Origin: a virus
Taxonomy: Duplodnaviria; Heunggongvirae; Uroviricota; Caudoviricetes
Direction: 5' to 3' (one strand)
DNA length: 30,900 bases
IMG/VR virus record: IMGVR_UViG_2617270950_000011
Below, piece by piece: positions 1 to 25,166 of the stretch; the stretch's first letter is position 1, and every line of letters begins with the position of its first letter. A program made the translations under genes and the position numbers. Below the pieces are notes generated by a model, which had not been told where the DNA came from, ran no database searches, and was given only the letters and a program-made list of their open reading frames with translations.

Positions 1-732
1 GTTCTCTGCTCCCAGCCTGATATCCTGGATATATCGGGAATCCGCATCCTGCTGTGTTATACCAGAAGTGATGTTTATGTCCTGCGTCCCGTCAAAGGGA
101 ACACCATTAATTGTGTGGGCATTTGCCAGCCTGTTCGCGGCAACGGCGGTGCCGTCCGATGGCAGGGCATTCGCCGCCCTGTTTACCGTTTCCCGTAAAC
201 CGACGTTATCGATAAAAGCCCCTTTATCCGGAATGTCTGCGCCGTTCTGCTCCCTGCGCAGGTAACGGTTATCACCTTCGCTTTTGCTGTAAACATCCAG
301 ATTATTACGGGCGGTTCCCTTATTCTCCAGGTCGGCGAGATTCTGATCCTTCGCCAGGGCATTAACGTCAGCGGGACCAAGACTGTTTTTTGTGGCAAGC
401 GTCCCCAGACCAAGATAACCACGGGCCAGACGCTGGGCCTCCGCACCGGCATCAGCAATTTCTTTCAGGTTATTTTTCCGGGAAAAGGCATTCGCAGCGA
501 TAATGGCTTTAATGGACAGCGTAAGCTGGTTTAACTGCGCCTTATCCGGCTGAATACTGGCTTCAGCCAGAATATTCAGCAGTTCGGCCTGGAGAATATT
601 CAGCCAGTCCTGACCAATCCAGCTGATACCTTTTTGTCCGTCACCTTCGGTAAACCAGGTGGTGGTATTACTCTGCGCCGGTGCCAGCGCAGGCATATTC
701 GCCACGCCGGAATTATTATCAACATGAAACAT
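1..732 (-). CDS. Tail fibre protein, N-terminal part (partial; gene continues beyond window start)
   Basis: ATG at 732-730 overlaps the upstream stop (TAATG). My translation stays open to position 1 ([35 protein letters not shown]...[45 protein letters not shown]). It is absent from the ORF track only because no stop lies in the window. Last gene of the baseplate string; LGLxETVNRA motif as in P2 H-type fibres (recalled). Confidence 0.55.
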
Positions 733-1292
733 TAAATAGTCTCCTCTTCATGGCTGTTTGCATAAACGTAAATAAACGTCTGCCATGCAGGCTTATAACG
801 GTTCAGAATACATTCCAGCGCACCGCCTTCATAAATACGCAGCGGCGTGAGAATATCATCCAGCACATTCATATTCCGGTAGCCGGTTTCACTGTTAATC
901 GTGACAATACTGACCCACTGCGAATCCGGTGAGGGCTGAATGTCAATCTGATAACCAAACTCCGCCGCAAACCGGATATAAAATTCACGGTTCAGCGAGG
1001 GCTTCATCCGGTATTTATTTCCGGCATAACGCTGTCGCTCCGTGAGGGTGGCTCCGGCCATATCACACTCGGGAAGCCCGAGATAACGCTCCCAGTCTTC
1101 CAGCAGCAGGCGCGACGTGTCAGGGAAACGCTCTGCAAGCAGCTGTTTACCCGTCCAGGATACACGCGCTGTCGAATGACTGAGGCCCAGACATAATGAT
1201 GCCAGTACGGATGACGGACGCTTGTCCCATGCCAGCCCGTCAGGCAGTAACTGCAACAGGGCGCGCTGATGCGGGGTCAGGGTTACAGCCAT
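732..1292 (-). CDS. Phage tail/baseplate protein, DUF2313 (Mu gp48 / YmfQ-like)
   Basis: 186-aa ORF ([25 protein letters not shown]...) immediately downstream of the baseplate J-like gene, with overlapping stop/start; family assignment from memory. Confidence 0.55.
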
Positions 1293-2365
1293 GTGATTTC
1301 TCCTACCGTCAGCAGCTCACTGTCTCCCGCCTGAACTGACGTCAGCGGACTGCGCACTTCAAAATCCTCCAGATTTTTCACCCCTGCCACCGCCCGCCAG
1401 AAAGACGACGGCAGAACCAGACCGCCGGGCCGGGATTCGTTATACAACAGGTCGGTCAGCGCCTGTTTTACGGCCGCCTGATTCTCCGGTGTTTTCGGGA
1501 TGATCCTGATGCTGAAGGGCACCGGCTTATTGGTCAGTTTAAACACGGTCACCGTCGGCCCCAGAGGCTGTCCGACAGGCTGGCCGGTCGCCGGATCATC
1601 ATGACTGCGGATATAATCCGCCACCCGCTGAACATCACCGTCACCGGGGAAAATATCCGGGTTATTATCCTGAACAAACGTTACCCCCACGCTGCCCGCC
1701 TGCGGCCATTCCGGGCGGCACCATGCCCGCGTCACGCCCGGCACTTCACGCGCCCAGCGTTCAAAATCATACTGCGTGCCGCCGGACGGTGGATTCTGCA
1801 CCCGGAAAACCAGACGGGAAAGCAGCTCCGGCACGGTTTCCACATCCGCACCACCGGTGATCCCCGTTCCGGTCACCGTGGCCGTCTGGTTGATCCCCGC
1901 CTGCGGTGTGATAAATGTCAGTTTTGTCCCTGCCGGGGCATTCCCCGCACGACCGGCACTTTCGGCTTCCACACTGACATTCAGCGTACCGGCCTTACCG
2001 GTCAGGGAGGTGGTGATACGGTAAACCACGCCATCACTTCGCTGGAGAAGCACACCTTCCTTGATCCCCGCATCCGTGGTCAGCATCAGCTGAACCGGCC
2101 CGTCCCCCCGAGAGGCAGGCTTACGCATGACGCCCCAGAATGCACAGTGTTTCAGCAGTTCGGCTTCATCGGCTTCGGTCGGGATGATCTGACGCGCAAT
2201 CCAGGCCAGATGCTCATGCTCCTGAGCAGATAACCCTGCCTGAGCGTAAGCAATGGCATTCAGGGTGGTTTCATTCACACCCGGCTGCGAGCCGGGCAGG
2301 CGCTGGCTGATATCCTGCTGTGTCTGCGTGATTAACTGTGCCAGCGGTAAAGGCTGATAAGGCAT
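1283..2365 (-). CDS. Baseplate J-like protein (Mu gp47 family)
   Basis: 360-aa ORF, position and size typical of the baseplate wedge J protein; ATGA overlap with the upstream gene. Confidence 0.6.
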   Translation of the reverse strand: MPYQPLPLAQLITQTQQDISQRLPGSQPGVNETTLNAIAYAQAGLSAQEHEHLAWIARQIIPTEADEAELLKHCAFWGVMRKPASRGDGPVQLMLTTDAGIKEGVLLQRSDGVVYRITTSLTGKAGTLNVSVEAESAGRAGNAPAGTKLTFITPQAGINQTATVTGTGITGGADVETVPELLSRLVFRVQNPPSGGTQYDFERWAREVPGVTRAWCRPEWPQAGSVGVTFVQDNNPDIFPGDGDVQRVADYIRSHDDPATGQPVGQPLGPTVTVFKLTNKPVPFSIRIIPKTPENQAAVKQALTDLLYNESRPGGLVLPSSFWRAVAGVKNLEDFEVRSPLTSVQAGDSELLTVGEITWL

Positions 2366-2802
2366 TACTCCCCCTTAAGATCAGCATAAAAAATCATGGG
2401 CCTCACTGAACCATCAGGCAGGGTTATGCGCACCGAAAGCGCCAGCCGCGCGTGTCCCACACGTTCTGCATGACAGACCACGGATGACGCCACGCCATCC
2501 TGACTGAGCCAGCCCAGCGCCTCATCCGCGTAAGCACGGGCACGGCTTATCACCGAGGCCAGCGTTTTTTCCCGGCTGAGAAGCCACAGACGGGAGCCAA
2601 TGGGGCGCGGGCGAAAACTGTCTCCCCACCATCCCCGGCGGTCGCGCGTACCGTCAGGGATTTCATCCGATGCCAGCGCCCGGCGGTCAGTAAACAGCGA
2701 AATCAGAACGGCCGTCAGCAGACTGTCATCCGTCAGCAGGTCGGCACCGTTCAGTTGCAGCGAACCGCATCCCTGATCCCACACAATTGCAATATCAGCC
2801 AT
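2365..2802 (-). CDS. Baseplate protein, gpW/gp25-like (Mu gp46-like)
   Basis: ORF track gives 2365..2946, but the internal ATG at 2802 (MADIAIVWDQ...) has a GGAGA ribosome-binding site and sits 3 nt upstream of the preceding gene's stop (ATGGCTGA), so the shorter 146-aa product is preferred. Confidence 0.5.
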   Translation of the reverse strand: MADIAIVWDQGCGSLQLNGADLLTDDSLLTAVLISLFTDRRALASDEIPDGTRDRRGWWGDSFRPRPIGSRLWLLSREKTLASVISRARAYADEALGWLSQDGVASSVVCHAERVGHARLALSVRITLPDGSVRPMIFYADLKGE

Positions 2803-3409
2803 TCTCCGGCACTCCTGTCTTACTGCCTTCGCCGTTATCATGATGCACATGGCCGGAATACCGTATCCCTGCAATAACGGCATCCGACATTGTGAACAGT
2901 CCCTGAGATTTCCCCGTACCCTCAAGCGCGAAATTACCCTTAACATGCAGGTTCTTATCCACCGTCACATTGCCCGTAAAGGTGGCTTCCGGCGTATCCA
3001 CCCGCATCCCCTCGTCGGCGTAAATCTCCAGCATTTTGCATGTCACAATAATGCGGCCATCCTTTGTTAACCGTATCCGGTGCCCCTCATGGTGATACAC
3101 CCCCGTATCTCCGGCTGTGAGTCCGGTCGGGCGGCTGCGCCGGTCTTCCACCACAAGCACCACAGTCTGATCCCGCTGTCCGCCCAGACAGGCAAAAAAG
3201 GTTTCCGCACCCGGCAGGGGAACGCTGATCTGCCCGTACTGCTGGGGACGCTCCACATCATCAAAGGTTTCGCCGTCCATGCCGGTGAGCTGCACATTCT
3301 GCATTTTCAGTTCGTCATGTGTGCCGGTCAGAACGCCCCGGCCAAACAACAGGCGAATACCGCGCGTTACCGGGGCAATCAGGCGGCTGAACACTTCATC
3401 ATTCATCAA
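2795..3409 (-). CDS. Baseplate assembly protein V / spike (Mu gp45-like)
   Basis: 204-aa ORF with gpV-like size and position between the gpP-like and gpW-like genes. Confidence 0.55.
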   Translation of the reverse strand: MMNDEVFSRLIAPVTRGIRLLFGRGVLTGTHDELKMQNVQLTGMDGETFDDVERPQQYGQISVPLPGAETFFACLGGQRDQTVVLVVEDRRSRPTGLTAGDTGVYHHEGHRIRLTKDGRIIVTCKMLEIYADEGMRVDTPEATFTGNVTVDKNLHVKGNFALEGTGKSQGLFTMSDAVIAGIRYSGHVHHDNGEGSKTGVPENG

Positions 3410-3427
3410 AGCTGATCCCCTGTTTTT

Positions 3428-4522
3428 TCATCTGCTGGCGAATAAAGGCATCAACATCGTCACCGGAACCCCCCGGCCCTTACTGTCCGGCTCTGCCGGA
3501 ACGATAAAGCCGTCACGCGGTGCCAGTACCAGCCGGGTGACTTCCCCGTTATGCTCATCAAGTAAAAACTCCACCTGACAGACCAGCAGTTCAGTCTGTT
3601 CTATACCGAAACGCAGGGCTGAAACACCGGTCAGCAGATTGACATCCCATAACCGGCCATCATCCCGGAACCAGCCACGCACGGTGGCAGAAAACCGTTC
3701 TGAACGGGCAATCGCACGGCGCATTTCACGCAGGGCACGCTGCCGTGCACCGGTGATGTCTGTCTGTTGATCGGCGAGGATGATTTTCGGCCGGTAGCGG
3801 CCGATCTGCTCATCACTGATGACGCCCACAGGTGCTGCCAGACGGGCGGCGGATTCGCTGTCTCCCCGTTTGCCACCACCGCGCCCGTGTCCCCGGACAC
3901 GGTATTCGCTGTATCGTCCTCGCCAGTCCGTGTTGTAATCGGCATCAAGCAGGTTATCTCCCAGCACCAGTCTGTCCGTCTGCTGGCTTCCTGCCTGGGT
4001 GAACACCAGATCGCCGTCAGCATTACTGGTCACCAGCACCCCGCGATGCCGGGCAGCACGGGTCAGCGCATCCGCCACGGTTTCTGAGTTTTCCAGCGTA
4101 AAAGAGCTGAAGGGGCGTGCAGCCGTGTCGTCGTTAACCTGCCAGCGCACGGCTATCCCGAAGGGCGCACATAAATCTGCGGCAATCTGTGCCAGCGTCC
4201 GGTTGCGCCACTGGCTGCCGGGATGGATGGCGGCACAGTCCACCAGGTCGCCGGTTTTATCCCGACCGCTGATGCTGATCTGATGACGGGTTGCACTGAT
4301 CCGCTGACTGACCTGATCCAGCCAGCCACTGATGACCGTCTGCCCGTTAATTCTGAGCGTCAGGGACTGACCGGTCCGCAGGGCTGAGGGGATGCGCTCA
4401 CCGGGCAGCATCAGCCCCAGTTCAAACGACCCGGCCAGATGCTCCAGCGAGCGACGGACGCTGACCGTCAGCCAGCCGGAAAAAATACTGCCGCCGATAT
4501 ACAGTTCAATCCTGCTGCTCAC
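3428..4522 (-). CDS. Tail protein, Mu gpP / P2 gpD family
   Basis: 364-aa ORF following the gpN-like gene; size and position as Mu P. Confidence 0.55.
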   Translation of the reverse strand: MSSRIELYIGGSIFSGWLTVSVRRSLEHLAGSFELGLMLPGERIPSALRTGQSLTLRINGQTVISGWLDQVSQRISATRHQISISGRDKTGDLVDCAAIHPGSQWRNRTLAQIAADLCAPFGIAVRWQVNDDTAARPFSSFTLENSETVADALTRAARHRGVLVTSNADGDLVFTQAGSQQTDRLVLGDNLLDADYNTDWRGRYSEYRVRGHGRGGGKRGDSESAARLAAPVGVISDEQIGRYRPKIILADQQTDITGARQRALREMRRAIARSERFSATVRGWFRDDGRLWDVNLLTGVSALRFGIEQTELLVCQVEFLLDEHNGEVTRLVLAPRDGFIVPAEPDSKGRGVPVTMLMPLFASR

Positions 4523-5864
4523 TGATCACCTCCACGCGGCGGCCACCCGGAACAAAAACCGGATCGGGGATATTGTTTCTGCGGACAAAATACTGCCAGC
4601 GGCGGCTGTTACCGGTGGCACGGTACAGCGTGACCAGTGCCGGTTCGGTGGTTCGCACCATGACCTGAAAAGCACCGGGAAGATGCACGCTCCGCGTGGT
4701 TAAATCTTCTGTCAGCGCAAGCCCTGCATCACGTAATGCAAGGGCGGTGCCGGTATGGCCCTGTGCGGACAGATCCAGCACCTGTTGTTCCATGGCATCG
4801 CTCAAATCCCGGTTGATACGCTGCACATCAGCAGAACTTTCCAGCCAGGCCAGTCCGCCCGCACGGTCAGTATCCTGAACGTGCGTCGTATTCTGCCGGA
4901 TGACCTGATCCAGCAGTTTTCCGACCGTCTGCGCCTGCGACACCAGGGCTGCACTCTGCATGACGCTCCGCAGCAGACGGATATTGTTCTGTGCCGCAGG
5001 CGTCAGACCAATCAGGCGCTGCGGATCATCCTGTTCGCTGAGGGTGTAACGCAGGGAAGAAAGTGTGCGGTACAGCTGCGGCATGGCCTGCTCTGTCGTG
5101 CTGTCACGGTTTGTGGTCAGGCTGCCGGACGGCGTTCCGGCTTTTCCGGTCAGCGACAGGGAAGGATCGCCGGGCAGCCCCGCCAGCACGGCAAACATTC
5201 CGGCCAGCGATTCAGCCATGCGACGGGGCGCATTAATCAGGGCGGCGGCATTCCCTTTCAGGGCAGTAAAACTGGCCGTAAAGGCACTGATATCCTGCAC
5301 AATCCCCATCCCTGAAACGGCATTCTCCAGCGCATCAATTTTATCGCTGATGGTGTCGGTCATGGCCTGTACATCATGCAGACCGTCTGAAATCACCGTC
5401 CAGCCGTCTGAAAGTGTGTTAAACAGCTGATTCATTGCTGAGCCGCTTTTCTGCTCCAGCGCAGCTGCCGTATCTTCTGCCACCGAAGGGGCGGTATCGT
5501 CACTGGCGGGGATCACGTTGATCGTGAACTCAACCGTTCCCTGCTCGTTGGCGTTATAACGGCTTTCAAAGCTGTTTATCAGCACGTTTAACGTGCCGTA
5601 ATCCGGGTGCATCAGTTCACCGGCACCGGGTGCACGCAGCGCATCACGCAGGCGGCTTCGCTGTGTCTGAAGATCGTCTCCGGTCACTAGAACCGTGAAT
5701 GTGAACTCCGGGAGTTTTGGCCCCAGATCATCCGCACCGCCGCTTTCACGCAGTGGGTATTCACGGCGCACAATGTTACGTCCGCCCCGTTCCCGCTGCT
5801 CCTGATAAACCAGGAACGGTACGCCACGAAAGGAGCCACGCCCCGGCGTGTCAGTAGAGGCCAT
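4506..5864 (-). CDS. Mu gpN-like tail/DNA circularisation protein
   Basis: 452-aa ORF directly downstream of the tape measure gene with overlapping boundaries. Confidence 0.5.
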   Translation of the reverse strand: MASTDTPGRGSFRGVPFLVYQEQRERGGRNIVRREYPLRESGGADDLGPKLPEFTFTVLVTGDDLQTQRSRLRDALRAPGAGELMHPDYGTLNVLINSFESRYNANEQGTVEFTINVIPASDDTAPSVAEDTAAALEQKSGSAMNQLFNTLSDGWTVISDGLHDVQAMTDTISDKIDALENAVSGMGIVQDISAFTASFTALKGNAAALINAPRRMAESLAGMFAVLAGLPGDPSLSLTGKAGTPSGSLTTNRDSTTEQAMPQLYRTLSSLRYTLSEQDDPQRLIGLTPAAQNNIRLLRSVMQSAALVSQAQTVGKLLDQVIRQNTTHVQDTDRAGGLAWLESSADVQRINRDLSDAMEQQVLDLSAQGHTGTALALRDAGLALTEDLTTRSVHLPGAFQVMVRTTEPALVTLYRATGNSRRWQYFVRRNNIPDPVFVPGGRRVEVISEQQD

Positions 5865-7908
5865 AGTTCCCTCCGTTCCAGACGTTCACATCCAGGCCAT
5901 GCTGTGCGGTATCATCCACATCAATACTGCGCGCCCGCCAGCCTTCAGGGGCCACAAGCTCCACCCGTGCGGCGGTTTTCGCGGTGGCCTGTCCGCCGTT
6001 TTCGTCACTGCTGCCACGCAGTTTCTGCCAGGCCTGCGTCAGCCAGCCCCCCAGATAATCACCGAGATAGCTGCCCACCGTGGAACCAATGGCAACCCCG
6101 ACCGGACCGGCAGCCGCCCCCAGCGCGCCACCGGCGATACTTCCGGCAAGAGAACCCACGGCACCGGCTTTATCGGCTGCACTGGCGCTGCTGTCCAGCA
6201 GTACAGGAGCCGCCATGGCACCGGCCCACAGGGCACCACCACCCAGCCGACCGGCACCACGGAACAGCCCGGCAAAACGCCCCAGCCCCATGCGGTTTCC
6301 GGCCGCCGTTAGCAGACCACCGGCACGGCTCATCATACGACCGAAGAAGCCCTGTTTACCGGCACTCTCCGCCAGTTGCTCACCGGCAGTCACGACGGTC
6401 GTGACACCCCGTCCACGTCCGGGGCCGCGTTTTTTACGGCCGCGCACGGTTTTGCCGTCACCGCTGACCACCACATCCCCGCCACCTGAGGCCAGGCCAC
6501 CCGCAGGCCAGTTGGTGACCAGCACGGGCTGAACGGCAGCCGGATTTACCCCGGTAAGGAAATTCAGGAACCGGCCAGCGCGTCCGGGCTGCGTTCCCGG
6601 TACAGTGGTCTGCGGTTTGCGGAAGGGCGACGTCAGCACGGAGGTCATCGCCATGCCATAGCGTAAGGGGGTTGCGCCGAGACGTAATGCCCCCGTCCCT
6701 GCAAACCTGAGCACCTTCAGCGCACGGGAGGCGAGATACATATACATCAGGTACTTTGCGGCGGTCTGCGCACCCTGACCAATACGATCCAGCGCATCGC
6801 CATAACCGGCGTCGCGCAGTGCCTGAAGCGTTTCCCTGACTTTCTGAATGGCCCGGTAAAAGCCGGTCGCAGCATCTCTGGCATACTCAAATCCCTGATT
6901 CAGAGCTGAGGCCGTCTGTGTGGCCAGCTTATCCTGTAAGCCGCTTTTCTGTGCCGCATCGGCATAATCCAGGAAGCCTTTCAGGCTCTTTTTCAGGCTG
7001 TCAAACGGTCCCTTTGCCATCACCTCGCGGGCAAATCCGTCCCAGACGTCGCCCATCATGGACGTCATTCCCGTCCAGGAATTCATGGCGTTTTTCTGGG
7101 CACCTTTTGCCTGTTCGGCCATCACCTGAAATAACAGGCGAATGCTGTCCGGCCCCAGTTTTCCTTTTTCGCCTTTCTCACGGATGATCTTCTGGTTTAC
7201 GCCCAGCTTATCGGCCAGTAACTGGTAAACGTTAATCCCGTATCCGGTCAGAATATTGGCGTCCGCTGCCTGGATACTCTGGCGGGCAAACATCTGTTTG
7301 AGTTGCAGGGACGCACCCTGTGCATCTGACAGTGACCAGCCGTGATAGCCGCCCTGATCCTGAAGCATGGTAATAAAGCGACGGGCTTCCCTGTCACTCA
7401 TACCGAACCCGCGACTGGAGGCGTATTCCTGCATAACCCCCGCCAGCCCCCAGGTGGTGTCTTTGGCGTTCTGTACCGCCCAGGCTTTCACTGCTTCCGT
7501 TTTTGCCGTATCGCCATGATTAATGGCGTTGAGACGCAGAATATAGTTCTCCATCTCTGCGGCCGGGCGGATAAAGGCTTTATTAAACCCGTAGACCGCA
7601 GCCCCTCCCGCCAGCATCCCGTAAAGGTTGCTTATCCGCCCGATGGTGCCGGTAATGCTGCCCTGAAGGCGGTCAAAATCTGACGTCACCGTGCGGATAC
7701 TGCCACGAACACCGGCAAGCGTTCGCTGCATACGGGAGCCGACAAGTTCTGTCTCCTGACCGGCACGACGTGCTGCATTTCCAAGACCACCCAGCCCCGT
7801 CCTGCCGGAACGGGAGAATGCCCCCAGCTCCTGTGACCACTGGCGGGATTTGGCAGAAATATTGCCGAGTAAATCGACAATCAGGGAGGCTTTCAGGTTT
7901 TTTGCCAT
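5851..7908 (-). CDS. Tail tape measure protein
   Basis: 685-aa Gly/Ala-rich ORF in the canonical position between the tube/chaperone genes and the baseplate genes. Confidence 0.7.
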   Translation of the reverse strand: MAKNLKASLIVDLLGNISAKSRQWSQELGAFSRSGRTGLGGLGNAARRAGQETELVGSRMQRTLAGVRGSIRTVTSDFDRLQGSITGTIGRISNLYGMLAGGAAVYGFNKAFIRPAAEMENYILRLNAINHGDTAKTEAVKAWAVQNAKDTTWGLAGVMQEYASSRGFGMSDREARRFITMLQDQGGYHGWSLSDAQGASLQLKQMFARQSIQAADANILTGYGINVYQLLADKLGVNQKIIREKGEKGKLGPDSIRLLFQVMAEQAKGAQKNAMNSWTGMTSMMGDVWDGFAREVMAKGPFDSLKKSLKGFLDYADAAQKSGLQDKLATQTASALNQGFEYARDAATGFYRAIQKVRETLQALRDAGYGDALDRIGQGAQTAAKYLMYMYLASRALKVLRFAGTGALRLGATPLRYGMAMTSVLTSPFRKPQTTVPGTQPGRAGRFLNFLTGVNPAAVQPVLVTNWPAGGLASGGGDVVVSGDGKTVRGRKKRGPGRGRGVTTVVTAGEQLAESAGKQGFFGRMMSRAGGLLTAAGNRMGLGRFAGLFRGAGRLGGGALWAGAMAAPVLLDSSASAADKAGAVGSLAGSIAGGALGAAAGPVGVAIGSTVGSYLGDYLGGWLTQAWQKLRGSSDENGGQATAKTAARVELVAPEGWRARSIDVDDTAQHGLDVNVWNGGNYGLY

Positions 7909-8035
7909 GGGTTACTGCTTCGTTCTGAGAATTTTTTCGGTCTGTCGGCAGTGCCGGTAAAGCTGCGATAAGGGGAGGTTAAGCGCCCACTCCGGGCCGC
8001 TTTTTGTCACCATCCCCAGCACAATTGCGGCTTCT

Positions 8036-8512
8036 TCAATCTGATCCCGGCACTGCATCTGGTCGCCCCCGTTCAGCGACCAGCTTTCCGGCCATCGCGG
8101 AATCAAGCAGGCTTACTGCCGCCATCAGTCGGGAGAGATCGCGCTCGCTGAGCTGTCCTATCTGACGCGGAGACAATGGCCCCTCAATCTGGCCGACAGC
8201 GGCAATCTGACGGCGCAGCAGCGCAATGCCGCGCAGTGCCGGTGAGGCCACAAGAACCGGACCGTTTCGGGTTTCCATAAGACGCTCGGCCTCGCTCTCC
8301 GCATCAATGCTGTCTTTTGCCGTCAGTTCGCGGAAGGTGACGCGGTATTCACGGGATTCCCCGAACGGCAGACCGTCGAGCAGATCCACATAGCCGTTCG
8401 CCAGTTGTTCAGCCAGCCCGGCGGTGCGGGGATCGCCGTCTTCAAGTGCATCCCGGATAGCCTCCATCACGGCCTCGTCAGAAACCGCCGTTTTTTTCTT
8501 ACGTGTGCTCAT
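8036..8512 (-). CDS. Putative tail assembly chaperone
   Basis: 158-aa acidic ORF between tail tube and tape measure, the position chaperones occupy in contractile-tail phages. A 64-aa ORF in the +1 frame (7912..8106) bridges to the tape measure start. Confidence 0.4.
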   Translation of the reverse strand: MSTRKKKTAVSDEAVMEAIRDALEDGDPRTAGLAEQLANGYVDLLDGLPFGESREYRVTFRELTAKDSIDAESEAERLMETRNGPVLVASPALRGIALLRRQIAAVGQIEGPLSPRQIGQLSERDLSRLMAAVSLLDSAMAGKLVAERGRPDAVPGSD

Positions 8513-8526
8513 TACATTTTTCCTGA

Positions 8527-8892
8527 TTACTGGACACGGGTACTGGTGGCGCTGGCGAACTTCGCGGAGATATCACCACCACCGTCAAGCGAGGCCGGTT
8601 CACTGCTCCAGGCCTTCGTCATCATGTGGACTTCACCGGTATCGGCCACGAACTCAATCGTGACCGCAGTCCAGGTGTTGATTTCATCGGCAGCCGGTGA
8701 ACCTTCTCCGCCAGCCGGAAATTTACAGTCCAGCGTCGCCTCACGGGGTTTCTCGCGATAGCCGTAAACTTTCGCGCCTTTCACCACTTCACGCTCAAAG
8801 CCGGACGGGGAGAACGTGGCCCCCTCAAGGGTGTCGTACTCCTGCCCGTTCACACGGATGGTGGCCGTGCCCTGATACTGTTTTCCGCTCAT
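8527..8892 (-). CDS. Tail tube protein
   Basis: 121-aa ORF immediately downstream of the sheath gene. Confidence 0.6.
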   Translation of the reverse strand: MSGKQYQGTATIRVNGQEYDTLEGATFSPSGFEREVVKGAKVYGYREKPREATLDCKFPAGGEGSPAADEINTWTAVTIEFVADTGEVHMMTKAWSSEPASLDGGGDISAKFASATSTRVQ

Positions 8893-8900
8893 GCCTTACC

Positions 8901-10403
8901 TCACAAAATGAAACGGATCTGCGCGGCCATGAAGCGGAACTGGTTAACCAGATCCGGTGTACACATCACATCCAGACGGTTACGGTCTTTTGTGTTGCGC
9001 TCCACGAGCAGATTCTTTTTAAAGGTGTCCAGATTTTCGACCAGTCCCAGATCCACCCATTCTTCCCCCAGCGAAATTAACTGAAGTTTCATGATCTCCG
9101 GTGTCACGATATTCTGACCGGCACGAACGGGCGTCCCGTCATCAGCCAGTTTATGGCGCGGAAAACGCTGCGTGATAAAGGTGCGCAGGGAATAACGCAG
9201 ATATGACAGGGTGTAGATGGTTTCCACATCCAGATAGCTGGGATCGATTTCGCCGTATGCATTCTGACGGTACATCGTCACCTGACGTTCAATCTGCACC
9301 ACATCCGCGGCCGCGACGGTCACCGTGGACATGCCGGTATAAAGCAGGCTGTTTCGCTCTTCCCGCGTCAGACGATCCGGTGCTTCAGGTGCCATACGGG
9401 CAGGCAGCGCCAGTGTCTGTAATGGTCGGGCCGGATCCGTTGACAGGGAGGGCGCACAGACCGCACAAATGGAGGCAGCCCAGACATAATCCGGCTCTGG
9501 TGCTTTAGGAATAGAAGTGCAGGTAAACAGGAAGTCATTACGGGATTCACCAAAACTGGTTGCCGTACCGAAGGTGCCGGTATGCGCCATCCAGACCATA
9601 CCGTCCGACATTTTTACCGGTCCCCAGCGTTTCAGCAGTTCATCCGCCAGAATTTTGAGATTTGCCGCATCCTTATAGGGCATGACGATGTAGTTGTACT
9701 GACGATTCCCCATCCCTGAGACGCTACGGGTGATATCGGGGTTTGTTGCCTTCTGTGTTGGCGCGACGAGCTCCAGCGTAAGACCGGCCGGTGTAGTTTC
9801 ACCGTCATAATAGTTCACCCGTAAATCATGAGCTGAGCATTCACCGATAAAGCGGGCGTTAACCCCCATGCTGCCTTTAAGTCCTTCAGCATTATCACCA
9901 CTGACTTCAGCTGCGATAGCAGTGAATGGCGCATCAGTGTCAGCGTTAATGACCTTAGCCAGCTCTTCCACAAGCTCTTTACCTTTTTTCCCCTTACTGA
10001 CGGGCAGGAGGTAACGGCGACCGCCGATGTAAACACTTAACACCCCGTCTGCCAATGCTGTTCCAATGATATTCATCACGCATGCCCTGGACTGACCTGT
10101 TCCAGCCCCCTGTGCAATGGCATATAACTCTGTGTCAGGGTTAATGGCGATAAATTCCTCTACCATCAGTGCAATCATGGAACCTCGCCCCCAGAGTTCT
10201 CTTGCTTGTGAAGCTCGGGTAATACGTACTGGTACATCAAGCTGACCGCGCCCCTGAATGGTAGTGTCTTTCATTGCAGCCTGACCAAACAACAGTACCG
10301 CCTGACGCTGTGGTGGAGTGCCGGTCACGGCCATTGAATTATTGATTTCAATCTGTACCAGCGGAATGCGATTGTTATCGCCGATATAATCAAAGTTAAT
10401 CAT
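8901..10403 (-). CDS. Contractile tail sheath protein (Mu gpL-like)
   Basis: 500-aa ORF; C-terminus ...DVMCTPDLVNQFRFMAAQIRFIL resembles sheath C-termini; followed by tube, chaperone and tape measure. Confidence 0.75.
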   Translation of the reverse strand: MINFDYIGDNNRIPLVQIEINNSMAVTGTPPQRQAVLLFGQAAMKDTTIQGRGQLDVPVRITRASQARELWGRGSMIALMVEEFIAINPDTELYAIAQGAGTGQSRACVMNIIGTALADGVLSVYIGGRRYLLPVSKGKKGKELVEELAKVINADTDAPFTAIAAEVSGDNAEGLKGSMGVNARFIGECSAHDLRVNYYDGETTPAGLTLELVAPTQKATNPDITRSVSGMGNRQYNYIVMPYKDAANLKILADELLKRWGPVKMSDGMVWMAHTGTFGTATSFGESRNDFLFTCTSIPKAPEPDYVWAASICAVCAPSLSTDPARPLQTLALPARMAPEAPDRLTREERNSLLYTGMSTVTVAAADVVQIERQVTMYRQNAYGEIDPSYLDVETIYTLSYLRYSLRTFITQRFPRHKLADDGTPVRAGQNIVTPEIMKLQLISLGEEWVDLGLVENLDTFKKNLLVERNTKDRNRLDVMCTPDLVNQFRFMAAQIRFIL

Positions 10404-10681
10404 CAGGACGTCCCCTTATCTGATGCTGCGGTTTTTTCAGCCACCGCCGCAGTTTTTTCTGCTACCGCTCCCGCTGGTTTTGCCGCCGCGCCGGTATTAG
10501 CAGTTGTGGCAGCCGGGGCAGGCTCCGCCGTTTTATCCACCACAATGACGTCGCCATCATTAAGACGGCGGCACCAGAACGGAGTGAAGGGTTTCTCTTC
10601 CCCGTCCTGAGAGAGCGGAGTCATCGTGTCGGGATCGCGGATCAGGCATCCCGGCGCAGGTTTAATAAAAATGGTTGTCAT
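10403..10681 (-). CDS. Hypothetical phage protein (Mu gp38-like position)
   Basis: 92-aa ORF with an Ala/Thr-rich C-terminus, ATGA-coupled to the sheath gene. Confidence 0.4.
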   Translation of the reverse strand: MTTIFIKPAPGCLIRDPDTMTPLSQDGEEKPFTPFWCRRLNDGDVIVVDKTAEPAPAATTANTGAAAKPAGAVAEKTAAVAEKTAASDKGTS

Positions 10682-10684
10682 CTG

Positions 10685-11248
10685 TTATTCCTCTGACAGT
10701 CCGGCGTTTTCACCGGCGGCAGTTGCACCAGGCAGACGGATGTGTGCCTTAAATTCCGGCGTGCCTTCCGGTTCGGTAAAGGTTTCGTAATGGCGCAGGA
10801 AATCATCCAGCGAGCTGATATCCGTCAGCGGGTCGATCATTTCCTCGCATGAGAAATACAGGGCGTACATCACGGCACCGCTGCCTGCCTGCGTTTCGGT
10901 GTAACCGTTGACCGCCTTTTCAAAGTAAAGCGGTGAGGTTTTTTCTGCTCTGAAGCCGTCCAGCACGGTAATCAGGCGGGCCACAATCTGATAAAGCCCG
11001 GGACGGCTGACCTCACGGCCATTGAGCATGTCGCCGATGACGTAGAACACCCAGTGACTGACCAGACGCCCACGGGTACGCCCTTCACCGGCACCCAGCC
11101 AGGCAACATAGATAGCCGGGGCGTTAATCAGCATGGTGCGCAGTACGCTGTCGCTCCAGTCGCCGGGATGTGTGTCAACAGACACCAGTTCATTCCCGAA
11201 ATACTCACGGATACGGGCGATGTACGCCTGCTCGGTTTCCGTAATCAT
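10685..11248 (-). CDS. Phage morphogenesis protein (Mu gp37-like, DUF1834-type)
   Basis: 187-aa ORF (MITETEQAYIARIREYFGNELVSVDTHPGDW...) upstream of the sheath; family assignment from memory. Confidence 0.45.
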   Translation of the reverse strand: MITETEQAYIARIREYFGNELVSVDTHPGDWSDSVLRTMLINAPAIYVAWLGAGEGRTRGRLVSHWVFYVIGDMLNGREVSRPGLYQIVARLITVLDGFRAEKTSPLYFEKAVNGYTETQAGSGAVMYALYFSCEEMIDPLTDISSLDDFLRHYETFTEPEGTPEFKAHIRLPGATAAGENAGLSEE

Positions 11249-11372
11249 ATAAAGCCCTTCTGGTTGCGCCCGAACACCGCCGCATCAGACTGCACCTGCG
11301 GTAAATCCCCGGATTCAGGGGCCGCACCGTCTGTATCCACGCCGACCGGCACGTTACCGTTCATGACATCTT

Positions 11373-12518
11373 TCAGCCAGGCCAGCGCCTCACGGTATCC
11401 GAGTAATACAGAAACGGTTTGCCATGATGGCGAATACCGTGCTGTATGGCACCGGCTACGGCGAAAACATTTTCAGCCAGGTCAAGGCTCCAGCCCACCA
11501 CAAAGCGCGTGCCACCGTCGATAACAAAGGTCACTTCCGGTGCGAATGGCCGCCCGTGAACCGGGTGCGCGCATTTCAGCTTCATGCCGTGACCGTCACC
11601 AATCCAGACATAATTCACCGGCATTTTTGACCAGTCGCGGCGCGTGAATCCCTCAAGCTGGCGGTATTCACTGCCGGTAACCCGTCCTTTTTGTTTCACC
11701 ACTTCCGGCAGTTTCTTCATTGCGCGGCGAATGGTGTCATAAGACGGCATGATATCGAGCATATAAGGCTCATCAGCGTGCCGGTGCTGCCATTCGGCAA
11801 CAAAATCCTCGTAAGCCTCGGTCATTGGTCGGCCGTTTGACTGGCGATACTGCGCCAGAAATTCGGGCAACCAGTTAATATCTTCGGCTTTTATTTCCTG
11901 GCGTTTACCTGGTGCCAGCAAAAGCAGGCGTTCAGCAGCGTTCTGTGCCTTATTAAAGGCCGCAATCCAGCGTTTCAGCGTGATTTCACTCAACACGCGA
12001 CTGTTTCCCTTTCTGGCGTTCGCTATCTCAACCATTGCCACAATGCGCTCATCCAGTTGCGAGTGTGACAGGCGGTCAACGATGAACCAGATAGCTTTAG
12101 CGCAGCTGAAACCGGGTTGTTGCGTGAATTTCAGCACCTCACTGACGATCGCAATGCGTGCGTCTGCCACCTGGCGCTGGTTTTCAGTCAGGGCATTGAG
12201 GCGTTCGACCATCAGTTGTGGTGATCCGCGATATGCCTCCACCGCATCAACCACGGCAGACGAGCGTCTGGCCTTTGTCACCACCGGAGCCGGTGATTCA
12301 TCGGCTTTTTGCGTCATCAGTTGCAGGGCATAACGTTCGCGTAATGCCTGCTGTGTCACTTCAGGTAAACAGTCAATGCTGTATTCAAAACCTTTAGCGC
12401 CTTTCTTGCGGCGTCTGCTGGTTTCGCTGGTTGCATACTTCCTGATTGAATAGCGAACGCCTTGCTCCGTTCCCGGCATCCCCGGTAATCCAACCAGTTC
12501 TTTGACTGAAGCAAACAT
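11373..12518 (-). pseudogene. Mu-type DDE transposase (MuA-like), C-terminally truncated after the second catalytic Asp
   Basis: 381 aa. N-terminus has the Mu winged-helix end-binding pattern (SVKELVGLPGMPGTEQGVRYSI...GAKGFEYSIDCLP); WIGDGHGMKL and ...YYSDTVRRWPG* match the first two DDE aspartate regions of MuA (recalled). The catalytic Glu and C-terminal domains are missing, and the next gene is gp37-like, not B. Confidence 0.75.
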
Positions 12519-12520
12519 AA

Positions 12521-12751
12521 TTACGCGACCTTACGAATGTAGCGGCTGGGCCAAATCTCCTCGGGCGGCACCCCCAGGCATTCCGCGATAATCCCCTCAT
12601 ACTTGGGAACATGGCGGTATACCGCGTTGTACAGATTGTTCTGACCCACGCCAGCTTTACGGGCCAGCGCCCTCATGCTTCCTTCTCTGGCTCTGACTTC
12701 CCCCAAAATTCTTTGAGGATGCCAATCAGGCTTAACTTCATTTCTCGCCAT
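12521..12751 (-). CDS. ner: Ner-like DNA-binding regulator
   Basis: 76 aa; ...WHPQRILGEVRAR...ALARKAGVGQNNLYNAV...PEEIWPSRYI matches the Mu Ner/Nlp pattern (recalled); sits immediately upstream of the transposase on the same strand. Confidence 0.75.
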   Translation of the reverse strand: MARNEVKPDWHPQRILGEVRAREGSMRALARKAGVGQNNLYNAVYRHVPKYEGIIAECLGVPPEEIWPSRYIRKVA

Positions 12752-12780
12752 GATTCATCTATCCTAAAAAGTTACGAAAT

Positions 12781-12804
12781 TTGATAACTAAACTTAGTTA
12801 TCAA
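12781..12804. promoter_or_regulatory. Operator-like 24-bp palindrome in the divergent ner/repressor control region
   Basis: TTGATAACTAA-AC-TTAGTTATCAA: 11-bp perfect inverted arms, with further TTGATA half-sites just upstream (~12779) and downstream (~12806); lies between the divergent Ner-like and repressor genes. Confidence 0.5.
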
Positions 12805-12935
12805 GTTTGATATAAGTATTGATCCACTTCTGCTTCATGTAAAGCAAAAAAACATCTTTCTTTTGTCTATTGTGGATCAATGGTTGCTGACAACACTAAA
12901 AGTTAATAATTTCAAATTGATAGGAAGAAAAGAAA

Positions 12936-13481
12936 ATGAACAAGCAAACAACAACATCTCTTTCTTTTCCTGGTGGTAGAAAAGAAAGCATTGCTGAGCG
13001 TCTGAAAAGGCTGATTGGCTCCCGCAGCGTCAGAGCTGCAGCAAGAGATTGGGGGCTTTCATTTTCAACACTAAACAATTATCTGTCTCGTGGCACTGAG
13101 CCATCCTTAAGTGTCGCCCTTCAGATTGCGTCTATCGAAGGAGTAAGTGTTGAGTGGCTATGTGGATTCAGTGATGCATCACAAGTGAATCGGTGCGAGA
13201 TCAAAGAAAATCAAGATGAAAGCAAGAAGATAATTATGACGATTATCAGCGCACTTGATGAAAAAGACTTAGAGCAGCTATCGAAAAATTTGGTTCTGAA
13301 TGGAGCCAAGTACTTAGCTCGGTTGTTAGAGCCTGAAAATCAAGATCTAATCCGCTTAGAAGGAAGGAAAAGAATAGCTGCATTACAGCTTGAAGGTATG
13401 TCTGACGAACGCGTCAGAGAGATTTTGGAAGAAACTGAGAGAAGTCGCAAATCTAACGCGGTAGAACCAAAAGCGGGTTAA
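12936..13481 (+). CDS. Phage repressor with CI-type N-terminal HTH (Phage_CI_repr-like)
   Basis: 181 aa; ...ERLKRLIGSRSVRAAARDWGLSFSTLNNYLSRGTEPSLSVALQIASIEGVSVEWLCG is a CI-type helix-turn-helix; divergent from ner across the operator palindrome. Confidence 0.7.
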   Translation: MNKQTTTSLSFPGGRKESIAERLKRLIGSRSVRAAARDWGLSFSTLNNYLSRGTEPSLSVALQIASIEGVSVEWLCGFSDASQVNRCEIKENQDESKKIIMTIISALDEKDLEQLSKNLVLNGAKYLARLLEPENQDLIRLEGRKRIAALQLEGMSDERVREILEETERSRKSNAVEPKAG

Positions 13482-13555
13482 TAGCATTAGCCCGCATTTT
13501 GCACTATATCGAGTATTTCGCATTGTTTGGAACGCCTTAAAAGACTAAAACCACA

Positions 13556-13711
13556 GTATCAAATGAGTTGCCGATTTTATAATAAATGACTAATTATTGC
13601 ACAATCGGTATCAAATAGACCTTATCCGCACATCTAGCCATCACCTGTTTTATTTCAGTATCTTACAGGTGATTTCACCTCCTTTCACTAAAACCCTTGT
13701 CGGTATCAAAT
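13556..13711 (+). repeat. Three direct copies of GTATCAAAT plus a 9-bp inverted repeat at the repressor/gene A junction
   Basis: GTATCAAAT at 13556-13564, 13608-13616 and 13703-13711; inverted repeat ATCACCTGT / ACAGGTGAT at 13640-13648 and 13665-13673; TTATCCGCA (DnaA-box-like) at 13622-13630. Function unknown. Confidence 0.4.
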
Positions 13712-15715
13712 GATTCACCTGGTTATATTAACGAGGCCGCCGCAGCATTCTCATGGAACAGCCCGAAAAAGGCTATTAACCCTTATCTGGACCCGGCGGA
13801 AGTTGCGCCGGTTTCTGCGCTTTCAAACCTGATCACTCTGTACGCTGCCGATAACGAGCAGGAACAACTGCGCCGCGAGGCACTGAGTGATCAGGTTTGG
13901 GAGCGTTATTTCTTTAATGAATCCCGTGATCCTGTCCAGCGCGAAATGGAGCAGGATAAGTTCATTAGCCGGGCAAAGTTGGCGCATGAGCAGCAGCGTT
14001 TTAACCCGGACATGGTCATTCTGGCAGACGTTAACGCCCAGCCTTCCCATATCAGCAGGCCGCTGATGCAACGTATTGAATACTTCAGCAGCCTTGGTAG
14101 GCCAAAGGCTTATTCCCGCTATTTACGTGAGACGATTAAGCCATGTCTGGAACGGCTGGAGCATGTACGCGACAGTCAGCTATCCACTTCTTTTCGCTTT
14201 ATGGCAAGCCATGAAGGGCTGGACGGCCTGCTGATTCTGCCTGAAATGAGTCAGGATCAGGTGAAACGCCTGTCCACCCTTGTTGCTGCGCATATGAGCA
14301 TGTGCCTTGATGCAGCTTGTGGCGATTTGTATGCCACCGATGACGTTAAGCCAGAAGAAATCCGCAAGACATGGGAAAAGGTGGCAGCAGAAACCCTGCG
14401 ACTGGATGTCATACCGCCTGCGTTTGAGCAACTCCGCCGGAAAAGAAACCGCCGTAAACCCGTGCCCTATGAACTCATTCCGGGTTCGCTGGCGCGTATG
14501 TTGTGCGCCGATTGGTGGTACCGGAAATTATGGAAGATGCGTTGCGAATGGCGGGAAGAGCAGTTGCGTGCTGTTTGCCTGGTCAGCAAAAAAGCATCTC
14601 CCTATGTCAGCTATGAAGCCATGATGCATAAACGTGAGCAGCGCCGTAAGTCGCTGGAGTTTTTCCGTTCTCATGAACTGGTGAACGAAGACGGCGACAC
14701 GCTGGACATGGAGGATGTGGTAAACGCCAGCAGCAGCAACCCTGCGCATCGCCGCAATGAGATGATGGCCTGTGTTAAAGGTCTGGAGCTTATCGCGGAA
14801 ATGCGCGGTGACTGCGCCGTTTTCTACACCATCACCTGTCCGTCACGTTTCCATTCCACGCTAAATAACGGCAGGCCCAACGCTGAATACGTTAATGCCT
14901 GGGCGTCTCTGCATCGTGTTCAGCAATTCCGCTTCTTTGGCATTCCGGGGCGTCAGGCTTACCGTGAACTGCGATTGCTGGCTGGTCAGGCGGCAAGGCA
15001 ACAGGGGGACAAAAAAGCAGGTGCGCCGGTACTGGATAACCCGCGCCTTGATGCAATCCTGGCTGCTGCTGATGCTGGTTGTTTTGCCACCTACATCATG
15101 AAGCAGGGCGGCGTACTGGTTCCCCGCAAATATCACCTCATCAGAACTGCTTATGAAATCAACGAAGAACCGACCGCATATGGCGATCACGGTATTCGTA
15201 TTTATGGCATCTGGTCACCCATTGCAGAGGGCAAGATCTGCACTCATGCGGTGAAGTGGAAAATGGTTCGTAAGGCCGTTGACGTTCAGGAGGCGGCAGC
15301 CGACCAGGGCGCTTGCGCCCCTTGGACTCGTGGCAATAACTGTCCCCTTGCTGAAAATTTGAACCAACAAGGGAAAGACAAATCAGCTGATGGGGATACC
15401 AGGACGGACATTACCTGCATGGATGACAAGGAGTTGCACGATTACCTGCACAGTATGAGCAAAAAAGAGCGCCGGGAACTGGCTGCAAGGTTACGCCTGG
15501 TGAAACCGAAACGGCGTAAAGACTACAAACAGCGAATTACAGACCATCAGCGACAGCAGCTCGTCTATGAACTGAAGTCCAGAGGATTTAATGGCAGCGA
15601 GAAAGAGGTCGATTTACTCCTTCGCGGCGGCAGTATTCCGTCAGGAGCAGGCCTGCGTATCTTCTATCGGAACCAGCGTTTGCAGGAAGATGATAAGTGG
15701 CGAAACCTGTATTAA
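13697..15715 (+). CDS. P2 gene A-family replication initiator homologue, apparently missing the HUH/Tyr catalytic core
   Basis: 672-aa ORF from a TTG start (true start uncertain). [23 protein letters not shown] and [27 protein letters not shown] resemble recalled P2 A segments, but no HxH or YxxxY motif occurs anywhere in the ORF. Confidence 0.7.
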
Positions 15716-16768: not shown

Positions 16769-17350
16769 ATGAGCGAAAGGAAAAGAATTGAAGATCAGTA
16801 TCTTCTCTATCATTTAACATGTATGGATAATCTACCTAGTATTTTAGACACAGGATTAAGATCTCGTGCATCAGTAAAAGGTGAGTTTGTTGATGTGGCC
16901 GACGGTGAAATAATAACAGGTCGCGAAGCATTAAATTTGCAAACAATGGTTCCTTTTCATTTCTTTACTAAGAATCCATTTGATGGAAGAGTCCTGAAAG
17001 ATCATAAGGAAAAATCATTTTGTATTATTTCGGTTTGTCGGGCATTTGCCAAAGAAAATGGTTGGAAAGTTATCCCTAAACATCCATTATCCACCAGTTC
17101 TGTTATAGACCTCTTAGATTATGAACAAGGAATGGCCCAAATTGACTGGGAGCTTATGAATATAAGGGATTATAAAAATGCAGAATGCAAATCTGTATGT
17201 ATGGCTGAGTGTTTATCAAGTGTAACGGTCGAGCCGAAAAATTTCCATTGCATCTTTGTCAAAAATGATAACGAAAAAAAATATGTTGAAGGGTTGATAA
17301 AACAACAAGGATTAAGTATATTGATAACGATCAACACTTATATGTTCTAA
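16769..17350 (+). CDS. darT: DarT, DUF4433 ssDNA ADP-ribosyltransferase toxin
   Basis: 193 aa; N-terminal LLYHLTCMDNLPSIL matches the DarT YHITHIDNL signature; VPFHFF and a downstream AECLS (candidate catalytic Glu) motif; followed 4 nt later by a macrodomain gene. Confidence 0.8.
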   Translation: MSERKRIEDQYLLYHLTCMDNLPSILDTGLRSRASVKGEFVDVADGEIITGREALNLQTMVPFHFFTKNPFDGRVLKDHKEKSFCIISVCRAFAKENGWKVIPKHPLSTSSVIDLLDYEQGMAQIDWELMNIRDYKNAECKSVCMAECLSSVTVEPKNFHCIFVKNDNEKKYVEGLIKQQGLSILITINTYMF

Positions 17351-17354
17351 TTCT

Positions 17355-18326
17355 ATGATTAAGTATGCAAGCGGAAATCTTCTAAACTCTACATCGCAAG
17401 CTCTTGTGAATGCTGTAAACTGCCAAGGAGTCATGGGAAAGGGTATTGCTTTGGCTTTTAAAGAAACTTTTCCCTATAATTTCGAAGTTTATAAGAGAGC
17501 ATGCACCACTGGTACAATGAAAATTGGACAGGTTTTAATTGTAGAGGAAAAGGGAAAAATAATCGTAAACTTTCCCACTAAAGATAGTTGGAGAAAAAAA
17601 TCAACATATGATTTTATCTCGCAAGGCCTTGAATCTTTAGCAAAAATTATAGACGAAAAAAAAATTACATCAATATCAATACCACCTTTAGGCTGTGGTA
17701 ATGGGGGCCTCGATTGGAATAAGGTTGAGGCTCTTATTTTAAAAACTTTTCAAAATTTAGATAATGTTGATGTGGTAATTTATCCGCCTGCAACTAACAA
17801 TCAGCTTTCAAAAAATAAAAATGTTATTAATGCTAAGCATCTTTTGGTTCACTACGCCTATGGAAAATTAAAAGTTAAGCAAAAATATTCCCTTTATACA
17901 GTTTTTTATATTTGCGAATGTATTGAGAAAGCAAATCTTTTTTTATTCGATTTTAAACATGGTCGGCCATACTCTTCTGAGTTAGAAAATATTATGAAGG
18001 ATATAGCAAACCTTAAAGTTGAGTTGCAAGGAGATTTTGATGCTTTTATTGAAGATTATATTAATACTCATCAATCCAAAGAGTTACAAACCGAGTTTGG
18101 TAAACTAATCTCAACTTTAAATCCAAGTATAAGTTTTCTCAATGCTCTTAAAAATAAGATTGATTATACAGATAGCGTACATGTGATCACGAGAATTGCT
18201 AAAGAAAAAGATCATGGCTTGCATATTGACAATTTCAAAGAATATGAAAATATTGTGCAGCATTTAATTAAAAATGGATTGGTAATCGAAGATATTTTTA
18301 ACGAACTAAAAATAAAGGGAAGTTAG
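17355..18326 (+). CDS. darG: DarG, macrodomain antitoxin
   Basis: 323 aa; N-terminal ALVNAVNCQGVMGKGIALAFKETFP is a macrodomain signature; translationally coupled to darT (stop 17348-17350, ATG 17355). Confidence 0.8.
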   Translation: MIKYASGNLLNSTSQALVNAVNCQGVMGKGIALAFKETFPYNFEVYKRACTTGTMKIGQVLIVEEKGKIIVNFPTKDSWRKKSTYDFISQGLESLAKIIDEKKITSISIPPLGCGNGGLDWNKVEALILKTFQNLDNVDVVIYPPATNNQLSKNKNVINAKHLLVHYAYGKLKVKQKYSLYTVFYICECIEKANLFLFDFKHGRPYSSELENIMKDIANLKVELQGDFDAFIEDYINTHQSKELQTEFGKLISTLNPSISFLNALKNKIDYTDSVHVITRIAKEKDHGLHIDNFKEYENIVQHLIKNGLVIEDIFNELKIKGS

Positions 18327-22244: not shown

Positions 22245-22290
22245 GGCACAAACCTACAGCCTTGAATGAAGGCTTTCCCCGCCTGCGGTT

Positions 22291-22308
22291 TGTGTGGTTG
22301 TCTGGACA
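22291..22308. promoter_or_regulatory. TGT-N12-ACA dyad (Ogr-type late promoter element) in the gpP upstream region
   Basis: TGTGTGGTTGTCTGGACA; the P2 late-promoter dyad is normally centred near -55. It lies about 50 bp from the gpP start and may be the PP or PO element. Confidence 0.4.
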
Positions 22309-23578: not shown

Positions 23579-23580
23579 AT

Positions 23581-25072: not shown

Positions 25073-25133
25073 ATAGTATTCAATCTGATTTAAATGGATG
25101 ACAGATGCGCAATAGTAAAATAGATTTGCGTAT

Positions 25134-25166
25134 AATAATCAATACATATTGAGATATATTGATTAT
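25134..25166. promoter_or_regulatory. 10-bp perfect inverted repeat upstream of the acyltransferase gene
   Basis: ATAATCAATA ... TATTGATTAT separated by 13 bp, 60-95 bp upstream of the acyltransferase ATG; candidate operator. Confidence 0.3.

Follow-up and report, generated by a model that had tools for sequence, protein, structure and literature searches.

Is a set of contractile-tail genes that stands, without head genes, beside the repressor of a Mu-like element the core of a domesticated tailocin-like particle, or is it what is left of a prophage in decay? The question is raised by a stretch of 30,900 nucleotides (nt) from the IMG/VR virus record IMGVR_UViG_2617270950_000011 (Caudoviricetes), referred to here as the window, which is part of draft contig JONB01000024.1 (GCA_000711515.1) from a commensal Escherichia coli. 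In a preliminary description, made from the letters alone, positions 1-12751 were described as a Mu-like element reduced to regulation and a complete-looking contractile tail; a domesticated tailocin-like particle was proposed and passive decay was named as the alternative. The analysis reported here favours the alternative: the element is probably a recently crippled (defective, 'grounded') Mu-like prophage that was inactivated passively, and it is best filed as an unremarkable addition to the class of defective prophages.

Genes were identified by Pfam and PHROG profile scans of the window proteins, and their coordinates are collected in Table 1. The minus strand of 1-12751 encodes Ner, a transposase stump of 381 amino acids (aa) and then contractile-tail genes from gp37 (tail terminator) through the fibre; the repressor and the left end of the element adjoin the Ner side at 12936-13727. 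The Mu-like regulatory genes and the string of tail genes named in the preliminary description were all recovered in their places. The left end is laid out as in Mu-like prophages, with the repressor (plus strand) divergent from ner and the transposase gene (minus strand) near the element end at 13727. Ten intact relatives and the intact prophage of E. coli HH35 are collinear with the window in late gene order over the retained part, the head part being deleted. Neighbouring tail genes overlap or are separated by 14 nt or less; the exceptions are the gap between the chaperone and tape measure genes, which is filled by an extension open reading frame (ORF), and an 18-nt gap between the hub gene and gp45. 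Protein roles were taken from the cryo-electron microscopy of Mu, which assigns the head-tail adaptor to gp36, the tail terminator to gp37, the tube initiator to gp43, the hub to gp44, the spike to gp45, the wedge to gp46-48 and the fibre to gp49 (PMC11915804).

The HH35 prophage (NZ_CP136993.2, about 577.2-615.8 kb) was used as reference for the missing part. By alignment, the window is 99.5% identical to it over 77-11397 and 98.7% identical over 11396-13727; between the two stretches HH35 holds an extra 18,637 bp, and the window is joined at a 2-bp TA microhomology. Neither breakpoint is a module border: one lies in the transposase gene, after residue 374, and the other within the adaptor gene gp36. 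Because the breakpoints are intragenic and share 2 bp, the deletion is a single random illegitimate-recombination event and not a module-level rearrangement. The first complete gene past it is gp37, and since gp36 is the adaptor and gp37 the terminator (PMC11915804), the retained set begins exactly at the first true tail protein.

According to the HH35 annotation, the segment lost on the replication side comprises the C-terminal half of the transposase, an AAA ATPase (MuB), Gam and a gp16-family gene. For control and lysis, it comprises a single Mor-family (Mor/C-type) activator, a lysozyme and small late genes; for packaging and the head, terminase, portal, minor head protein, protease and major head protein gpT; and, next to the breakpoint, an HI1506-like protein and the first two thirds of gp36. 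The absence of transposase B, head and lysis genes had been noted from the window, and the alignment with HH35 explains it: MuB and the lysis, packaging and head genes have gone by internal deletion and do not merely lie beyond the window. The earlier remark on the lack of head genes is correct for the Mu-like element. Terminase and portal fragments are present in the window at 20797-22244, but they are part of a separate, decayed P2-like prophage and so do not count as head and terminase genes of the same element, which had been named beforehand as evidence against a tailocin-like particle.

The stump consists of 374 native residues followed by 7 out-of-frame codons, is cut between YYSD and N, and is 97% identical to residues 1-374 of the 695-aa HH35 transposase. 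Its N terminus matches domain I-alpha of MuA (PDB 1tns) and the DNA-binding region is kept; the Mu-transpos_C domain (532-592) and most of a weakly detected integrase-core region (328-425) are gone. Mapping of the DDE residues by using solved MuA structures gave a sequence match only to domain I-alpha (1tns). The motifs GDGHG and YYSDN, together with weak rve matches at 328-425, suggest that the cut falls just behind the second catalytic Asp and that the third catalytic residue has been lost. A functional Mu-like phage has a complete DDE transposase and its ATPase partner B; here the transposase stops after residue 374 of 695 and B lies in the deleted segment. As the transposase is incomplete and the B gene deleted, the element is a derivative of functional transposable phages and not one of them. 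In the 90%-identity protein cluster to which the 381-aa stump is assigned, the representative is a DUF6645/sialate O-acetylesterase and so are most members, which looks like a clustering artefact and not like biology.

The deleted form is rare. Its junction was found in 0 of 5,426 complete E. coli genomes, and the stump protein was found on seven contigs, all with the same neighbours, the same insertion site and one junction. These contigs come from several NCBI assemblies and one independent ENA metagenome assembly; the named carrier isolates are E. coli 3-020-07_S3_C1 and 2-460-02_S4_C2, and a literature search on the carrier strain names returned nothing useful. The deleted form is also young: a sister contig (L004, from a metagenome) differs from the window by five single-nucleotide polymorphisms (SNPs) and one indel in 21,146 nt, with one SNP and the hub indel described below falling in the tail region. 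Because the sister contig differs there by this one SNP and one indel, the intact tail ORFs are uninformative on selection.

Of the 5,426 complete genomes, 227 cover the tail module to at least 80%, and 227 do so for the head/packaging/lysis module (a comparison made by counts and by the rows listed); head genes lie upstream of gp37 in all ten relatives sampled. Tail-only copies are not a recurrent state in complete genomes. The Mu-like prophage family is present in about 4% of them, and look-ups by common tail proteins led only to intact prophages. As a separate observation, E. coli AST46 (NZ_AP043639.1, about 2.051-2.078 Mb) matches only 1-9748 of the tail query; some 13 kb (as against some 20 kb) separate the tail match from the Mu-like left end, next to which lies a P2 capsid gene, and this could be another member of the phage family with a different deletion.

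The tail ORFs have the lengths found in ten intact relatives, with the exception of the hub gene gpP and of the fibre gene, which is cut by the contig end. (For gp46, the start of the mechanical 193-aa ORF is too early and 145 aa is correct.) In the hub gene, the coding strand has lost 1 nt at about 3470 (GGGGTGG to GGGGGG), which gives a product of 364 aa in place of 374, in which the last 23 residues are replaced by 13 unrelated ones, and turns the overlap with gp45 into the 18-nt gap. The 364-aa product was found in the window's contig only; the sister contig encodes an intact hub of 374 aa. The effect of the frameshift is uncertain, because the altered part lies beyond the last Pfam hub domain (259-340) and within the stretch that aligns poorly with Mu gp44; the frameshift could also be an assembly error. 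The tail described earlier as complete-looking is therefore present from gp37 to gp48, with a hub gene whose 3' end is out of frame in this contig and a fibre gene of which the contig holds the first 244 codons, the C terminus and the fibre chaperone lying outside. Frameshifts in the essential tail genes had been named beforehand as evidence against a tailocin-like particle; the other ORFs proved to be of reference length, and the hub carries such a frameshift in this contig and is free of it in the sister contig.

Window position 1 lies 1 nt from the contig end, within an invertible fibre segment, and the right end of the Mu-like element is out of sight because the contig stops inside the fibre gene. 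The crossover region of this segment is at about 77-220. All 732 nt of the fibre segment are collinear only with a relative in flipped orientation (L014); the other relatives match 1-653 and then continue in an inverted copy. Past the inverted-repeat region the contig runs on for 76 nt and breaks, which suggests that the sequenced culture contained both orientations of the segment and is consistent with this mixture having broken the assembly; the metagenome scaffold, like the source contig, comes to an end in or near the fibre gene. Beyond the fibre, ten of ten relatives hold a fibre chaperone, an invertase, an acetylesterase-like protein, two small DUF proteins and com/mom, and no lysis or head genes were found there in any of the ten.

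With the deletion, the tail genes have come to stand downstream of ner, the transposase stump and a Pe-like promoter. The earlier placing of the tail module under repressor/Ner control is thus correct as anatomy. The Pe-like site is a candidate early promoter by virtue of its position, the promoter scan having returned two promoter-like matches where 7.6 were expected by chance. On the minus strand from 12751 to 10403 no terminator-like hairpin was found, and RNA folding at the junction is no better than that of shuffled sequences (z=0.38). In Mu, the late promoters need C, and Ner turns off the early promoter. By analogy, the tail genes of the window are probably silent, because their own late activator has been deleted. 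Upon loss of the repressor, read-through from the early promoter into ner, the stump and gp37 onward would be possible, since no terminator-like hairpin or unusual RNA structure intervenes, and it would be the only evident route to transcription of the tail genes. Repressor, Ner, operator region and left end have all remained intact, with 98.7-99.9% identity to their counterparts in intact prophages.

The site of insertion was located by comparison with E423, where a P2-like prophage that lies between rcdA and ybjL has its replication gene A uninterrupted (empty site). As identity to E423 begins at 13728, the Mu-like phage entered P2 gene A 34 nt past its start codon; relatives of the element occupy many different host genes. 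TTAAC at 13728-13732 is predicted to be the 5-bp target duplication. The ends of Mu itself finish in CA; the outer end of the family studied here (window 13700-13732) reads ...CACCTGGTTATA, then host DNA, and no CA was seen.

The course of events is reconstructed as follows. A complete transposable prophage of about 38 kb inserted into gene A of a resident P2-like prophage that was already decaying. A single illegitimate-recombination deletion of 18,637 bp then joined transposase codon 374 to the last 50 codons of gp36, leaving an element that is presumably incapable of transposition, replication, packaging or lysis. Its repressor, still present, probably holds the early promoter shut and may give immunity to related phages, and the tail genes would be intact only for want of time to decay. 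Signs of decay are the hub frameshift, in the window's contig only, and the state of the neighbouring P2-like prophage, which has decayed in the same style. The grounds on which passive decay is preferred are the single intragenic deletion at a 2-bp microhomology, the rarity and youth of the junction, its lack of recurrence in complete genomes, the loss of lysozyme and activator, the absence of lysis or head genes beyond the fibre in the relatives, and the hub lesion. The element resembles other defective E. coli prophages (O157 Sakai pool, PMC2669165; review PMC6379469) in its internal deletion, in retaining a repressor and structural genes, and in being nested in a decaying prophage. It differs from such prophages in general in that one clean event has left a whole functional module, and in that its state before the deletion can be compared at 99.5% identity.

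Some findings weigh against a passively crippled prophage. Save for the C-terminal frameshift of the hub, the tail ORFs are at exact reference length, and the sister contig is without any defect. The spread of the lineage reaches two or more named isolate series and a metagenome. No terminator-like hairpin and no unusual RNA structure was found on the way from the early promoter to the tail genes, and tails might conceivably be produced upon derepression.

An improbable alternative, though the best surviving one, is that the remnant has been kept for immunity: the repressor, perhaps together with the DNA-binding stump, would protect the host against superinfecting Mu-like phages, and the tail genes would be passengers. 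The intact state of the repressor, Ner, operator region and left end agrees with this, as do the N-terminal DNA-binding region kept in the stump and the abundance of related Mu-like prophages at the frequency given above (about 4% of complete E. coli genomes). However, the lineage is too young for conservation to signal selection, retention of the repressor is the default in any prophage with a fresh deletion, and a dominant-negative role for the stump is speculation.

Somewhat less probable again is a nascent tailocin. In this reading the early promoter, controlled by repressor and Ner, would have acquired a complete Mu-type tail module through the deletion, and head-less tails, set free by lysis in trans, would kill competitors that carry the receptor of the fibre. 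By the Mu component list (PMC11915804) every gene from gp37 to the fibre is represented, the hub is intact in the sister contig, no terminator-like site was found from the Pe-like promoter to gp37, and the lineage occurs in several samples. Tailocins of Mu/SfV type do exist in Pseudomonas, namely the R-type syringacin of Pseudomonas syringae B728a (PMC4542187) and the Rp tailocins of rhizosphere Pseudomonas (PMC4684702), and for the R-type syringacin, too, lysis is incompletely accounted for and possibly effected in trans (PMC4542187). The window resembles these systems in a Mu-type contractile tail set that stands beside regulators, without head, replication or transposition genes. The Pseudomonas tailocins, in contrast, occupy fixed loci (trpE-trpG, mutS-cinA) that are conserved across species, and have their own regulators, at least a partial lysis cassette and demonstrated killing, whereas in the window the junction is unique, the lineage is clonal and very young, and lysis and activator genes are absent.

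Measured against what defines a tailocin, the absence of head, packaging and replication genes applies, these having lain in the 18.6-kb deleted segment. An own holin/endolysin cassette is lacking, the lysozyme of the element having been deleted, and in place of a fixed locus across strains and species with selection after head loss there is one junction at one site. By these marks the element does not qualify as a tailocin, having neither a lysis cassette nor a conserved locus. Neither a lysis gene nor a late activator is left to serve a nascent particle, and the breakpoints are intragenic, as a random deletion predicts. The lineage is too young for selection to show, and the tail-only state does not recur in complete genomes. 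In the window's contig the hub is frameshifted, and the fibre's C terminus and its chaperone lie outside the contig. Moreover, the yield of particles would be low, because a single non-replicating copy affords no replication-driven gene dosage and because Ner would shut down the early promoter as in Mu. Taken as a finished, domesticated particle, the proposal is unsupported: the junction is rare and young, the module counts are 227 against 227, and no lysis gene or activator remains. That the lineage is the first step in the birth of a tailocin, such that derepressed carriers with an intact hub would release head-less killing particles through the lysis of another prophage, is given a slightly smaller chance still; if it were true, the carrier strains would be a natural start for studying the origin of tailocins from Mu-type phages in enterobacteria.

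That the join of transposase and gp36 is a chimeric contig, the strain carrying an intact prophage, could be suspected from the draft source and from the break of the contig in the fibre gene, but this was rejected as next to impossible, since the junction has a clean 2-bp microhomology and the identical junction protein recurs on seven contigs from independent assemblies (several from NCBI and the ENA metagenome).

The passively crippled prophage is regarded as a routine case of prophage decay, and its use is to correct a tempting over-reading: an intact-looking tail module by a repressor is no sign of domestication if no more than a few SNPs have accumulated since the deletion. What allowed decay and domestication to be separated here was an intact prophage 99.5% identical to the window, together with a sister contig and the frequencies of the modules in complete genomes.

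The closest known systems are intact E. coli Mu-like prophages (HH35, and the inserts in Shiga toxin (Stx) phages LC727881 and LC727895), which have the same gene order and 91-99.5% nucleotide identity. They share with the window the repressor, ner, the N-terminal half of the transposase, gp37 to the fibre, and the left end; the window differs by the missing 18,637 bp and the 1-nt deletion in the hub gene. No closely related isolated phage was found by DNA comparison, the only matches among phage records being the Mu-like inserts in Stx prophage records (91%). Likeness to Mu, D108 and SfMu is seen in the c/ner/A layout of the left end and in the tail genes, each of which falls into the Pfam family that bears the name of its Mu counterpart; the hub aligns with Mu gp44 (PDB 1wru/9ki1) with E=1.5e-110. 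Unlike these phages, the element is defective, and protein identity to them is only about 50%. Its repressor is of XRE type and not of Mu-c type, with no peptidase domain detected in the 181-aa protein by the profile scans, and its transposase matches that of Mu by sequence only in domain I-alpha.

Table 1. Features of the Mu-like element and its insertion target in the window, in order of position.
Feature	Position (nt)	Strand	Basis and remarks
Tail fibre N terminus (Mu gp49 position), 244 codons	1-732	-	phrog_1833 tail fibre, E=1e-123; ORF open to contig end
Baseplate wedge gp48, 186 aa	732-1292	-	PF10076 Phage_Mu_Gp48, E=7.5e-22; length as in 10 intact relatives
Baseplate wedge gp47 (Baseplate_J), 360 aa	1283-2365	-	PF04865, E=2.8e-62; exact protein widespread in intact prophages
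Baseplate wedge gp46, 145 aa	2365-2802	-	PF07409 GP46, E=1.8e-37; gene call, relatives also 145 aa
Central spike gp45, 204 aa	2795-3409	-	PF06890 Phage_Mu_Gp45, E=5.7e-25
Baseplate hub gpP/gp44, 364 aa, frameshifted	3428-4522	-	Pfam GpP domains; intact HH35 copy against Mu gp44 (PDB 1wru), E=1.5e-110
gpN/gp43, DNA-circularisation and tube-initiator protein, 452 aa	4506-5864	-	PF07157, E=1.1e-24; phrog_184, E=1e-111; role from PMC11915804
Tape measure protein, 685 aa	5851-7908	-	PF20155 TMP_3, E=2.1e-17; length as in relatives
Conserved 64-aa ORF overlapping gp41	7912-8106	-	phrog_12783, E=9.6e-39; presumably a frameshift extension of chaperone gp41
Tail assembly chaperone gp41	8036-8512	-	PF23746 Gp41_Mu, E=3.3e-32
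Tail tube protein, 121 aa	8527-8892	-	PF10618, E=3.4e-30
Tail sheath protein, 500 aa	8901-10403	-	PF04984 and PF17482; ~50% identical to gpL of Mu, D108 and SfMu
DUF2635 protein at gp38 position, 92 aa	10403-10681	-	PF10948, E=4.4e-19
gp37 tail terminator, 187 aa	10685-11248	-	PF08873 Phage_Mu_Gp37, E=2.6e-15; role from PMC11915804
Remnant of adaptor gene gp36 (149 nt, last ~50 of 139 codons)	11249-11397	-	Collinear with HH35 to L001 30322, inside 'gp436 family' coding sequence 30170-30589
Truncated Mu-type transposase, 381 aa	11373-12518	-	phrog_310 positions 8-348 of 696; in Pfam only HTH_Tnp_Mu_1
Deletion junction, shared TA	11396-11397		18,637 bp missing relative to HH35
Ner-like early regulator, 76 aa	12521-12751	-	PF13693 HTH_35, E=1e-21; phrog_769
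Sigma-70-like promoter match (TTTACA-17-AATACT), expected Pe place	12815-12843	-	Consensus match only
Prophage repressor, 181 aa, XRE-type helix-turn-helix	12936-13481	+	phrog_3037 transcriptional repressor, E=4.5e-60; weak HTH_3 match
Left end of Mu-like element	13482-13727		Homology to independently inserted relatives ends at 13727
Target of insertion: P2-like replication gene A	13728-15715	+	PF05840 Phage_GPA; 100% identical to E423 from 13728 on

The P2-like prophage around the insertion shows several lesions of its own. Its gene A lacks 390 nt (130 codons, in frame) relative to E423, at 14879-14881. The remnant at 20797-27736 includes fragments of the portal protein (131 aa), of the terminase (353 aa) and of a lysozyme (112 aa), the last of which misses the first 16 profile positions and is the only lysozyme in the window; the fibre, chaperone and sheath genes look intact. 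A 422-aa ORF fuses the tube protein FII to the C-terminal part of gpD, which implies that the tape-measure region has been lost. The P2-like prophage of E423 is differently deleted and is without window 21375-22604.

The P2-like remnant also carries cargo of low G+C content (0.32-0.39) at 16769-20766, which comprises a DarT/DarG toxin-antitoxin defence pair (16769-17350 and 17355-18326) and an AIPR/AbiU-like abortive-infection protein (18943-20766). Between its fibre chaperone and sheath genes lies an acyltransferase gene (Acyl_transf_3, 24041-25072, minus strand, G+C content about 0.31), which may be cargo that modifies surface polysaccharides.

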